Source: Octopus sinensis (Eukaryota). Taken from it: a stretch of DNA of 64,000 nt. Within the stretch, counting starts at the first letter, position 1, and each line of letters opens with the position of its first letter. The stretch is taken from contig NC_043000.1 in assembly GCF_006345805.1 (NCBI RefSeq), forward strand, positions 40,858,001 through 40,922,000, read 5' to 3'. This document shows, piece after piece, positions 780-64,000 of the stretch. A program made the translations under genes and the position numbers. Below the pieces are notes generated by a model. That model saw only the letters and a program-made list of their open reading frames with translations. It did no database searches and was not told the origin of the DNA.

Positions 780-812
780 TTTTTTTTCTCCATTCATTTT
801 GTCTGGAAGAAC
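780..812 (-). CDS. Microexon, 33 nt, phase 1-1: (G)SSRQNEWRKK; gene probably continues off the left edge
   Basis: tcttcctcttttag|GTTCTTCCAGACAAAATGAATGGAGAAAAAAAA|gtaagttgat. Confidence 0.65.
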
Positions 813-1839
813 CTAAAAGAGGAAGATATATGTTATTTGTAAAAAAGAAAGGCAACATATTGAATAAAAAATTGTATTAGAGTTCTAATGAATTGAATTA
901 TCATGATGGCTATTAAAAAGATCCAATGTTTTGGAGTCTTGAACATTTTGGGGAGAAAGAACGAGGCTGCATTTTCATCTAAGTTGAAGAACTTCAAATA
1001 AGCAAACAAAATGAACGAAATGAAGGAGTGAAAGAGTTGATCCGAATAGAGAATGGGGAAAGCTAGTGTGATAGGATGCAAGTATTTTGGGAAGTAATGT
1101 GAAAAAAGTGGGGGGGTTGTATAAGTAATATGAGAGGAGGTATGAGTGGGGTAGTAGATGATTTGAGTTGTCGGTGAGCAGTACGATATGAGAGGAAGTA
1201 AAGTGCGAGGGAAGGATACTCAAAATTTGTAACGCTCTCTAGGTAAGTTGAAATAGAAGAAGGGGTTATGGGAAGACGGAGATGAGGGAGAAAGGAGGGC
1301 AGCAGAGGCATTATGCAACAATGCAGATGAACATTCAACAAATTGGACTGGGGGTTGAGGAGGAAAAGAAAATGAGTTAGCAAAGGACCGAGGTTAGTAA
1401 AGAGTAGTTGAAACTAAAGAATTACTAAGAATTTATATGTTAATTAGGTTGTGAAAAAAAAAAAGCGAGAATCGGGAATCTGCAACAATTGGTTATATAC
1501 TCAATTATTATTTAATTTAGATTTCCTAGTTATCGCCCATACTTTTCTGAACAATCGTCAACGCTAATGGATCTTCTCATTTTTTCATCAATATTGAACG
1601 AAGGTATAAGATTTAATTACAGACTACTACGCCATCATGCATTAAGTTAATAATGGTGACTCTATGTCACTAAATTTCAAAGGCATGTACAATGGTTAAT
1701 TGTGTGCCCTGGATCTTTGTCTGTGCCAAGATAGGCAGAGAAAGGTCATTTTCAGCATTCCAACTTACGTACTCTCACGTAATTATTGATATTTTTTTTA
1801 TCGATATGTTAAAATGTTAGATTATGTGAAACATATACA

Positions 1840-2220
1840 CAGGCGCCGGCGTGGCTATATGGAAACAATTTTGCGTCCCAATCATATGGTTCGGGGTTTA
1901 GTCCAACTGCGTGGTACCTTGGGCAAGTCTTCTGCAATTGACTCGGGCCGAACAAAGCCTCATGAATGGATTGCGTCGACGGAAATTGAGAGTAACCCGT
2001 CGCGCGCACATGCATACATAAAACACTCACACACACATGTTTGTGTGTGTGTATGTTTGTCTCCCCACCCACACGCATAATGAAAGAGGCCGATAGAATA
2101 TGTATCAGCCCTAACAAAATAGGTTTTGGGGTCGATTTGTTTGAGTAAACCTTTGAAGGTGGTGCTCCAGCATGGCCACAGTCTACTCACTGAAACAAGT
2201 AAAAGATAAACGATAAAGAT
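1840..2220 (+). mobile_element. tRNA-headed SINE with CR1-like tail
   Basis: Head GGCGCCGGCGTGGCT..., tail ggtggtgctccagcatggccacagtc...ctgaaacaagtaaaagataaa. Related copies at about 47680-48430 and 50710-51090. Confidence 0.6.
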
Positions 2221-2232
2221 ATGTCAACTTAC

Positions 2233-2274
2233 CGGCTGTTTTTCTAGGGGCGGTAACGATATGTTTATACTTCT
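2233..2274 (-). CDS. Microexon, 42 nt, phase 1-1: KYKHIVTAPRKTA
   Basis: ttcattttaattacag|AGAAGTATAAACATATCGTTACCGCCCCTAGAAAAACAGCCG|gtaagttgacat. Same donor flank as the 12185 exon; VTAP motif shared with the 15282 exon. Confidence 0.68.
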
Positions 2275-2553
2275 CTGTAATTAAAATGAATAACATCAAC
2301 CATTTCTGATGTTTAAGACAATTTATGATAAGTTTTAAGTTATGCAAAATCGTGACATATTTATAGCGGAGATATATAATTGATTCAATATTTTCAAGGA
2401 TACACTTTATGTTGGGTATCACCCATCTCTTCTTTAATACAGCAAGAGTGGCTTATATCTAACAGGTCTATTGTTGATACATAATATTGACTTCAAGAAA
2501 TCTAATAAGGTTTGAAGGAATCCATGGTTGGTTATTTAATGAACTAAGTTCTG

Positions 2554-61242: not shown

Positions 61243-61877
61243 CTGAAAAAAATTAAAATATATATGATGACTGCAGACTCATTTATGGCTCAATTTATCT
61301 CACTCTCTCTCTCTCTCTCTCTCTCTCTCTCCTCTCTCTCTCTCTCATACTCATTCCCCCACGTTAGGTCATCAAGTATGAAAGTTGCAGAAAAGAAAAC
61401 AATGTTTGCTAGTGTTTTATAAATACAAGAAATAGTTTTATTCATTTAAGTATGCAGCCGCATTGTCAATACACATTTGCCATTTCAGTAGTAGCTTGTC
61501 CAGCCCGGAACTGCAAAAGCTTCGCAATCTAGAGTCAATAAAATCGTGGAAGGCCTGTTTTACAGCATCGTCGGAATTATATTGTTTCTTATCAAAATGT
61601 TATCCAAATTCTGGAAGAATGTTAGTCAGTGGGGAAAGATCAGGTGAGTATGGTGGATGATGAAGAATTTGTAACTCCAACTCCTGCAGTTTCGTCAATG
61701 TTATTTTTGCAATGTGTGGTCTGGCGTTGTCTTGCAATAAAATAGGAGCGGATCTGTCCATTAATCTAGGCTGTTATTTTGTAAGTTTCTGCATCATTTG
61801 GTCCTATTGGCTGCAGTGTACAATACATTGGATGCCAGCATATCAAGAAAATAATGTTGAAACGTAACGATAATTAC

Positions 61878-61922
61878 CCTCAGATGAGTCACCATAAATA
61901 CTAAAATCATATTTGTGGGATT
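61878..61922 (-). CDS. Microexon, 45 nt, phase 1-1: (E)SHKYDFSIYGDSSE
   Basis: tttttcag|AATCCCACAAATATGATTTTAGTATTTATGGTGACTCATCTGAGG|gtaatt. Confidence 0.8.
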
Positions 61923-62216
61923 CTGAAAAAATTGAAATATATATGATGGCTGCAGACTCATTTATGGCTGAGCCTCTCTCTACCTCTCACACACACACGC
62001 TCTTCCACTCTCTCTTTCTCTCATCCGCATGCCCACACACATGTGTACACGCATACGCACACACACCCACATATAATATATGATAAATATACAGAGGTAC
62101 AAAATGAAAATATCTTTTACACCAATTGTCATCCATACAGCTATGATCGTTTCGAAGCATTTATCACATGAAAACTATTTTAGTGTATGACAAATAATAT
62201 TTTACTTTACATGCCT

Positions 62217-62638
62217 GGGATCCTTTCGGTTTGAACGGCAGTTTTTAACATAATTTCTAGGTAACTAAAAAATTTTAAATTTCGTTTACTTGTAGAATGT
62301 TTTTATAAAACATCTTTTTCTCCTGGCTTTATTGAGAAAATTCTATATTTTGTAAGATATTTGGTTGTTTTTTTTTTTTTCAATTTCTGCAATTTCAACC
62401 AATCAATGACCGTCTATTGAGATGAAAATATTGTGTGCCGTATGAATATGTCCCTCGTTTAAGAAACAGATTGGGTTTATTTACATTTCTGAAGAAAGAA
62501 AGATACCCTCCCCCCACCCCTAATCCTAACCCTAAAACAGATTGAAATGCAATAGATCGATGCTATGGTCATAATTATGGGTGACAATTTCATATGACAC
62601 CGCTAGAAAAAAGCTGCCGTTCAAGCCGAAAAGATCCC
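62217..62638. mobile_element. MITE with 6-bp TSD (ATGCCT)
   Basis: TIRs gggatcctttcggtttgaacggcag / ctgccgttcaagccgaaaagatccc. The paralogous site at about 52786 is empty (tttacatgccggtatt). Confidence 0.88.
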
Positions 62639-63995
62639 ATGCCTGTATTAATACGTATAATATAAATTATATAATTCAGTTTAAAAATTTATAAATTAAT
62701 ACAGGTAAAAGGACTTGTCATCACGTCAAAGGATATAGTTACTTTCATCGACACAATGCATATATATAAACGCAAGGAGTTAGCATGCGTAATACTGATA
62801 TATGGAAGACAATAATTAATAAAATATAGAAGATAGGTAGGAGATTTAGCATGATATTAAAAAGTAAACAGTGGATTACAATGGTGGAAGAAAATGTACA
62901 TATAGTAAGATATATATGGAACATTATATAGTTATTATTAATAACCTAGAAATAAAAATGGTAGATAAAGTAAAAACCAAACTATATGTAGTGTTGTAGA
63001 TATTCTGTTTACGGAATACACCTCCTCTTCGACTTACGACCATCCACACTTACGACTATAAAAATAAAAAAATAAATAATCGACTTTCGGACATTGGGCA
63101 GCTGCGAGTTACAATAACTATGGCAGCATCTGGCAACGCAGGCCTCCAGCAGACTCAGACATCCACTGCCTGCCACCGTCTCTCACTCAGTCACTGACAA
63201 GCATCAGTTGTGTTTGAGTGAAAATAGTGTTGAAAAATATAAATACGACATACGACCAGATCGAATTACGACCTATCAGTCGGAACGGAGCTCGTTTGTA
63301 AGTCGAATAGAAGGTGTAAATGGATGAATAAGAACAATACAAGGAATAAATTGAAAGTATAAGGAAATAAAAGTAAAAAAAAATAGGATGAAATAAAGGA
63401 AGACAGGGCATGAACAATATTGATATTGTAAATGGAAGACATTGAAATATATGTCAAACTAATAAAATAAACAATACCCCGACTCCTTCTTCATAGTTTA
63501 TATACGCCTAAGGAAATAATCATAATCAAGTGGATCTATTGGATTTCAACTGTATCTGACTATATATTACATTCCTTTTTCTGTTTTGGTTTACTGTGTG
63601 TATTGAATGCTGATCTATGAAAAGAGCTTTGTTTGTGAGTACCTCCGGATTAGTTACATCCATATATTGTCCATTAAAGTTATAAAAATATCATATATGT
63701 ATATAAATGTGCATATATTTATGTATATAAATATACATATATGTATGTAAATAAATATACATATATATATATAATATATATTATAATATATATATATATA
63801 TATATATATATATATATATATATATATATATATATTATATATATATATATATATATATTACAATGACCAGACGGCGTAAATAGTGTTTTCCCCATGCGCA
63901 TGCGTTACCGGCTCTGCCAGTTCGCGAGTTTGATATAATATAATATATTAGATGCCAGTATAGCAGGGAAAAAGTCGAGATTTAACAATAATTAC

Positions 63996-64000
63996 CACTA
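63996..64000 (-). CDS. Microexon gene: 3' end of an exon cut by the window edge
   Basis: Minus strand ...TAGTG|gtaattattgttaaatctcgac. Same donor and downstream intron as the exon at 54868-54906. Confidence 0.65.

Follow-up and report, generated by a model that had tools for sequence, protein, structure and literature searches.

A minus-strand array of small phase-1 exons

We analyzed a window of 64,000 nt from Octopus sinensis (RefSeq assembly GCF_006345805.1, contig NC_043000.1, positions 40,858,001 to 40,922,000 of the forward strand). The entire window (1..64000) is contained in one minus-strand gene of ~156 kb. As predicted here, this gene has ~46 exons: a signal-peptide exon followed by 45 more, of which 44 are symmetric (phase 1-1) and one is terminal. 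Coordinates are window positions, extended beyond the window as NC_043000.1 position minus 40858000; the gene reads from high to low, and exons cited by a single number are named by their start. An earlier note on the window had described 16 such exons as part of a hidden micro-exon gene (MEG). A six-frame search recovered all 16 peptides on the minus strand, each flanked by AG and GT, with the lengths claimed (744 nt in total). The gene is larger than that note reported, with exons extending on both sides of the window.

The 45 exons after the signal exon measure 24–150 nt (median 42 nt), 41 of them being ≤51 nt and nine ≤36 nt, and introns in the gene range from 408 to 14,051 nt. The stop-free phase-1 joining proposed for the 16 exons extends to the full set: all 45 are multiples of three in phase 1-1, and none has T as its final base. 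Thus no junction, in any combination, can create a stop codon. Protein, DNA and pattern searches found the gene in single copy in the O. sinensis genome.

To gauge chance, we applied a generic splice model whose training did not include these exons, taking the best donor per acceptor at a threshold of 7.5. Within the window, candidates that were both multiples of three and open in phase 1 numbered 15 of 21 on the minus strand versus 2 of 11 on the plus strand, and 30 block shuffles of the minus strand gave a mean of 0.5 and a maximum of 3. Twelve of the 15 are exons of the earlier note. Seven of the 15 belong to one duplicated family and are non-independent; collapsing them leaves 9 versus 2. 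Across the full gene span the counts were 38 of 67 (minus) and 3 of 31 (plus), and the 70 kb upstream of the gene gave 1 of 18 and 1 of 11. When 664 kb were divided into 50-kb bins, the three minus-strand bins that span most of the gene held 13, 9 and 16 such candidates, and every other bin, on either strand, held three or fewer; no sister array was seen in this scanned region. The earlier note had offered a shuffled or plus-strand scan as a possible refutation, and neither gave as many symmetric phase-1 segments as the minus strand. Could the array nonetheless be a set of chance AG/GT matches, multiplied by tandem duplication, with no gene at all? Duplication does inflate the counts, and the plus-strand background of ~3 symmetric phase-1 candidates per 163 kb means that a few of the listed exons may be false. 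Yet the excess across the span (38 versus 3), the ordered signal–repeats–cysteine anatomy, and a separate annotation with identical junctions (see below) make this explanation extremely improbable. We conclude that the array is almost certainly a real coding gene.

All exons described next lie on the minus strand. At the upstream edge of the window, a 39-nt exon (63996-64034) has only its 3′ end, 63996..64000, inside; cut by the window edge, it was missed in the earlier note and is a paralogue of 54868-54906. It is followed by a 45-nt exon (61878..61922) of what we term the ESH family, which has 11 copies in the gene. Three identical 45-nt ESH exons (61198..61242, 60142..60186 and 59101..59145) lie in ~1.05-kb tandem units, and downstream of them are a diverged 45-nt ESH exon (58055..58099), a 39-nt ESH-family exon (54868..54906), another 45-nt ESH exon (52463..52507), and a 66-nt exon (48509..48574) with an ESH-related 3′ half. 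The last of these occurs twice in a predicted protein of Octopus vulgaris, discussed below. Between exons 52507 and 48574 is an assembly gap of 100 N (51251-51350), which could hold a second copy of the 66-nt exon. Next come a 114-nt exon rich in His, Gly and Tyr (34344..34457), two 30-nt exons (19698..19727 and 15282..15311) and a 33-nt exon (12185..12217), all present in the O. vulgaris model. A 54-nt candidate between the first two (32330..32383) is less certain: its donor is strong, its acceptor is weak, it is single-copy without a paralogue, and the O. vulgaris model does not contain it. Toward the downstream edge are a 33-nt candidate (6869..6901), a 48-nt exon (6353..6400) that is a paralogue of 2233-2274 and had been missed, a 42-nt basic exon (2233..2274), and a 33-nt basic exon (780..812) with strong splice sites, no paralogue and no counterpart in the O. 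vulgaris model. The earlier note cautioned that some 3′ exons could be chance matches. This caution applies to exon 6901, which has the weakest splice sites (score 10.2, threshold 10), no paralogue and no place in the O. vulgaris model, and which may be a chance match. Among the original 16, five are in the O. vulgaris model (48574, 34457, 19727, 15311 and 12217), eight have paralogous copies sharing flanks, and three (32383, 6901 and 812) have neither form of support.

Two frames of transposon type lie in introns of this region. One, of 446 codons on the plus strand (30881-32218), matches Pfam STPR repeats (E 1.5e-11), lies 110 nt from candidate exon 32383, and presumably belongs to a Helitron-like element. 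The other, on the minus strand (4400-5104), is a mariner-type transposase frame (Pfam Transposase_1 and DDE_3).

As the earlier note expected, start codon, signal peptide and stop lie outside the window. The signal-peptide exon (93317-93232, minus strand), called by rules, is 29 kb upstream; it has an ATG at 93292, a strong acceptor, a hydrophobic core and a phase-1 donor. Six symmetric minus-strand exons separate it from the window (87192, 85353, 72274, 69719, 69114 and 65830). Downstream on the same strand are 18 more: -7399, -7846, -14098 (150 nt), -18134, -19970, -20980, -22533, -25480 and -27146, then -28330, -29445, -30551, -32564, -36205, -37699, -40370, -41590 and -48409. Three two-cysteine exons (-58114, -60406 and -62696, minus strand) complete the gene, whose cysteine-tail end is 63 kb downstream of the window. 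The last continues to a stop codon at -62725..-62727, and AATAAA follows immediately.

Exons were picked from the candidate rows of the splice scan, except that -7399 was added on paralogy. Left out by judgement were 92424, 78446, 70790, 63055, 24293, 22182, 17354, 13663, 7914, 6681, 2189, -3390, -18530, -21375, -24314, -34631, -48993, -49952, -52121, -56853, -64691 and -67371, plus overlapping alternatives. The two of these that were tested, 63055 and 70790, represent a dispersed repeat (40 matches of 40 scored). A 36-nt AG/GT segment at 83840-83805 has strong-looking sites, phase-1 stops and no paralogue; it is either an AT-rich chance match or a decayed exon.

A convergent plus-strand gene with TPR-coding exons, which we take to be TMTC-like, lies at extended positions -93927 to about -62900, with its probable last exon near -70043. 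Its possible ~7-kb 3′ untranslated region (UTR), with AATAAA at -62909, ends ~200 nt away from the final exon of the array. A stop exon at -68246 was adopted for the mini-exon gene at first and then set aside, as it overlaps a high-copy repeat and the probable UTR of the convergent gene. Ending at -68246 or at -62725 gives 704 residues and identical cysteines either way.

The O. vulgaris model and exon divergence

Searching with the 150-nt exon returned a single match, O. vulgaris CAI9721792.1, a predicted protein that is labelled hypothetical and is 307 residues long. Across 14 exons, 251 of 254 residues agree, the two species being too close for this identity to show selection. All 13 junction residues are as the splice sites predict, including those at junctions that jump exons. 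CAI9721792.1 begins at an internal Met, uses 14 of the 27 candidate exons within its span, contains two copies of the 66-nt exon, and takes its C-terminal piece from a weak acceptor. This terminal piece (-41908) was accordingly treated as cryptic or alternative. Counting either presence in this model or a paralogue with shared flanks, 37 of the 45 exons are backed. For the stretch 34300-34500, three data sets of unrecorded kind were listed as containing the sequence, none of them identified as RNA. In four probable RNA runs compared with the 3′ end of the gene, repeats dominated the matches, and of 314 joints the 15 that were listed include none between candidate exons. Neither result is evidence for or against transcription. 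Low-depth unspliced contigs of one run (X13) in this area are better explained by the UTR of the convergent gene and were not counted for the mini-exon gene.

The model also bears on whether the array has been wrongly joined from neighbouring genes (two or more) or is dead in part, so that the 5′ ESH block or the cysteine exons, for instance, would be separate or silent units. No single sequence found runs from the signal exon through to the cysteine tail, only the middle is represented in the O. vulgaris model, and a decayed, donorless exon copy lies at -15497. Strand and phase are uniform, however, with a single 5′ signal exon and 44 internal exons that join stop-free; the 66-nt exon of the O. 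vulgaris model is itself ESH-related; and the array is bounded on both sides. We therefore consider wrong joining very unlikely.

Homology searches covered the O. vulgaris part and one ESH exon; the cysteine tail, split over three exons, was left out. With the O. vulgaris protein as query, no homologue appeared among longer proteins, proteins of similar or shorter length being left out in the 90% collection. Among 1.84 billion representatives, the only matches were the O. vulgaris protein itself and a repeat protein that is unrelated (E 4e-4). One ESH exon as query gave no homologue, nothing in Pfam exceeded the cut-off, and there was no match in PDB or Atlas. Judged by these searches, this appears to be an orphan gene, with no homologue found outside octopus. 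The literature searched held no paper on this gene or on any cephalopod micro-exon gene.

Descent of the exons by duplication, as the earlier note supposed, is borne out by flank similarity. Paralogous exons share flanks, and by this measure they fall into the 11-member ESH family, a six-member family in the third block of the protein, and several pairs. The ~1.05-kb tandem units with three identical ESH exons are 95.5–97.3% alike. A DDE-transposase fragment (61609-61731; weak Pfam match, E 0.002) lies within the tandem-unit region (58100-61800), and copies of a dispersed repeat in the gene have one another among their nearest relatives; transposon fragments were therefore probably carried along as the units duplicated. 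Six paralogous pairs are of unequal length, differing by 6 or 21 nt, and all paralogous copies found keep the frame; the flank-similarity search revealed no out-of-frame exon copy and one copy without a donor. The probable dead exon at -15497, related to exon -19970, has an acceptor, a stop inside and no donor. A recent two-exon block duplication (-18134 to -22574) has identical exons and flanks 96–99% alike, and the O. vulgaris model uses one copy. Exons have thus been born by tandem duplication at several ages.

Some exons diverge faster than introns. Between exons 61242 and 58099, 11 of 45 bases have changed, every change being non-synonymous, versus 39 of 645 in the flanks (7/334 upstream, 32/311 downstream; P 7e-6, or 1e-3 using the more diverged flank alone). 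Exons -36205 and -37699 differ at 13 of 42 bases versus 34 of 613 in flanks. These are two of 15 pairs tested. The pair -29445/-30551 (P 2e-6) was not counted, as its upstream flank identity follows from duplication geometry. When nine disjoint pairs were pooled, 47 exon differences were observed versus 22 expected at the flank rate; minus the two outlier pairs, the figures were 23 versus 16.9. The reading frame is preserved and amino acid identity is not. Either selection separates some exons, or gene conversion homogenises introns while exons stay distinct.

These patterns can be read as those of a MEG-like diversity generator, secreted at a biotic interface (skin or gut mucus, saliva, sperm–egg or spermatophore contact), with exons skipped combinatorially and diversified by selection. 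Any exon subset is in frame and stop-free, the O. vulgaris model takes 14 of 27 candidate exons with skip-type junction residues, and the pairs 61242/58099 and -36205/-37699 diverge much faster than their flanks, accelerated evolution being reported for MEGs as well (PMC4350168). On the other hand, the gene is single-copy with no family, and most splice sites are strong. Exons absent from the O. vulgaris model may be missing from that genome or missed by prediction. Moreover, the ratio of non-synonymous to synonymous differences (pN/pS) is about 1 in the pooled pairs and the excess shrinks without the outliers; the contrast between exons and flanks could therefore stem from gene conversion that homogenises introns. 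We regard a diversity generator as possible but doubtful.

Predicted protein and its possible role

The joined frame encodes 704 residues. FoldIndex is negative in 90% of windows, there is no membrane segment, and the Atlas structure model of the O. vulgaris protein has a pLDDT (predicted local distance difference test) of 0.41. Four blocks can be distinguished. Block 1 (264 residues) is rich in Ser, Gly, His, Glu, Asp and Tyr, with an isoelectric point (pI) of 5.0 and 21 S-x-E motifs. Block 2 (127 residues) is basic, with pI 10 and 20% Lys+Arg. Block 3 (258 residues) is rich in Ala, Thr, Asn and Asp and has 11 N-glycosylation sequons. Block 4 is a 35-residue tail with six cysteines, C-x3-C-x7-C-x4-C-x6-C-x2-C. 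Overall, His makes up 7%, Asp+Glu about 17% and hydrophobic residues 13%. These features, together with the predicted signal exon and the repeated exons, agree with the secreted, disordered, modular protein proposed in the earlier note. That the product is secreted and disordered is very probable.

S-x-E, the site recognized by Fam20C-type kinases, occurs 17 times in 234 non-redundant residues (7.3 per 100). Shuffles gave a mean of 4.4 and a maximum of 13 in 5000, indicating enrichment beyond composition. For nine of the 17 sites, the Glu is supplied by a codon split across an exon junction. The density exceeds the highest value quoted for Scpp/Sparc-L proteins, 5.1 per 100, where the average is 1.7–1.8 (PMC9122587). 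In the O. sinensis genome, Fam20C-family matches above cut-off were found at two loci.

The basic block invites comparison with granin- or prohormone-like proteins. The product might be a secretory-granule precursor from which cleavage at basic sites would release an acidic fragment rich in His, basic peptides, and a glycosylated fragment with the cysteine domain. The 127-residue block has seven dibasic sites, one basic cluster follows the signal peptide, and the flanking blocks have almost none. But such pairs are expected by chance at 20% Lys+Arg, and the repeated exons are not bordered by basic sites, so that repeats would not be released as separate peptides. This makes a granule precursor quite unlikely.

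Our preferred reading, to which we assign a probability of roughly 0.45, is that the gene encodes a phosphorylated, cation-binding scaffold of hard or cementing extracellular material, that is, a matrix or gland protein. The gene grew by tandem duplication of exon-plus-intron units. From the observed exon pattern, duplication, open frame and composition, we infer the following steps of modification, targeting and binding. The signal peptide would direct the product into the Golgi. There, S-x-E sites, about half of them completed by a junction Glu, would be phosphorylated by a Fam20C-type kinase, and the C-terminal half would be N-glycosylated. Clusters of phospho-Ser, Asp and His may hold Ca, Zn or Cu. 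The basic middle block could pair with acidic blocks or polyanions, opposite charges favouring self-assembly, and the six-cysteine tail may fold as a small disulfide anchor. Cassette skipping might tune length and charge, as in tropoelastin. ESH exons share their initial Glu-forming bases, so skipping among them would keep junction S-x-E sites. Candidate sites are the statolith, the cuticle of beak, radula or sucker, and reproductive-gland cement; statolith matrix proteins are described as little studied (PMC6597576).

The joining of 45 exons stop-free behind a signal exon, and the enrichment of exons over controls, support the scaffold reading, as do the O. vulgaris match with its 13 predicted junction residues, the frame kept by paralogous copies, the predicted disorder, the S-x-E density, the Fam20C-family loci and the sequons of block 3. 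Several points weigh against it. Its functional part is drawn solely from composition, and no homologue of known role was found. With a pI of 5.3 and the Asp+Glu content given above, the protein is no more than moderately acidic, and one of its blocks is basic. Paralogue exon sequences are not conserved (pN 0.128, pS 0.123, flanks 0.052 in the nine pooled pairs), a divergence as compatible with diversification as with a structural role. Signal exon and cysteine exons are both absent from the O. vulgaris model, which ends in a different, weak-acceptor piece. It may moreover be an ab initio prediction, the O. vulgaris annotation having merged Iso-Seq, RNA-seq and ab initio predictions (PMC10700109). 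Finally, eight of the 45 exons lack both a flank-sharing paralogue and a counterpart in that model: 85353, 32383, 6901, 812, -48409 and all three cysteine exons.

A bolder version of the scaffold reading, which we think unlikely, is that of an octopus SCPP-like phosphoprotein gene that evolved independently in phase 1. Junctions would complete kinase sites, and skipping among 44 cassettes plus selection-driven exon divergence would adjust how much phosphate and metal a secreted matrix carries. If true, this would be a combinatorial, fast-evolving matrix or recognition protein outside flatworms and vertebrates, and a first candidate gene for the poorly known matrix of statolith or gland. As it stands, the gene offers a specific candidate for a protein of octopus extracellular matrix or glands. 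In the sole public protein model found, 14 of ~46 exons are represented and both the signal peptide and the cysteine tail are missing, which suggests that genes of this kind can go almost unnoticed in cephalopod annotation.

Comparison with known systems

In layout, the gene resembles tropoelastin (ELN), described as having a signal exon, dozens of short phase 1:1 exons, exon replication, a disordered product, and C-terminal cysteines followed by basic residues (bioRxiv 10.1101/2024.12.03.626628). Tropoelastin differs in being rich in Gly, Ala, Pro and Val, without His and avoiding acidic residues according to the same source, whereas the octopus protein is rich in Ser, Glu, Asp, His and Thr and has six tail cysteines. 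The alternating hydrophobic and Lys/Ala cross-linking exons of tropoelastin are not seen in the octopus gene, and the searches outlined above gave no homology between the two. A layout of this type is known as the way in which disordered secreted proteins such as tropoelastin have grown.

Vertebrate SCPP/SIBLING proteins are likewise reported as secreted, disordered and acidic, with Tyr-rich parts, S-x-E Fam20C sites and symmetric exons (PMC3632108, PMC9122587). Their introns are described as mostly phase 0, their ancestry as SPARC-like and their genes as clustered, whereas the octopus gene is entirely phase 1. The searches outlined above gave no homology to SCPP or SPARC-like genes, and no linkage to SPARC-like genes was detected, the only neighbour recognised in 664 kb being the TPR gene. 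Fish otolith proteins (Starmaker/OMM-64) and squid beak His-rich proteins are secreted, disordered repeat matrix proteins, acidic and His/Gly/Tyr-rich, respectively; the former are much more acidic and the latter more hydrophobic than the octopus protein. Neither gave a sequence match in any search run.

The earlier note had likened the gene to schistosome MEGs. This holds insofar as every exon can be skipped in frame without a stop; membership fails on exon size, homology, single copy and length. Shared with accounts of MEGs are a signal peptide, small symmetric exons, long introns, disorder, transposon fragments in duplicated units, and signs of fast exon evolution. MEGs, however, are described as having mainly exons of ≤36 nt (PMC8293314), the majority of 15 nt, with 10–20 exons, products of up to about 189 residues, gene families, proven skipping, and a seemingly flatworm-restricted distribution. 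In the octopus gene, which is single-copy, has ~46 exons for about 704 predicted residues and might be subject to skipping, 9 of 45 exons are ≤36 nt (median 42 nt), and 43 of 45 fit a looser range of 3–81 nt. No MEG-family homology was found in the searches outlined above, which covered the O. vulgaris part and one ESH exon, without the cysteine tail.

Thus composition excludes elastin, phase and ancestry exclude SCPP, and exon size together with lack of homology in these searches excludes a schistosome MEG. The assembly of disordered proteins from consecutive same-phase exons has been described as a general route (PMC3632108), and the class of architecture is already known. Unusual are the junction-built kinase sites in phase 1, the exons that outpace introns, and the unplaced cysteine tail. 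The gene combines a tropoelastin-like layout, SCPP/SIBLING-like chemistry and MEG-like skippability, and is a member of none of these groups.

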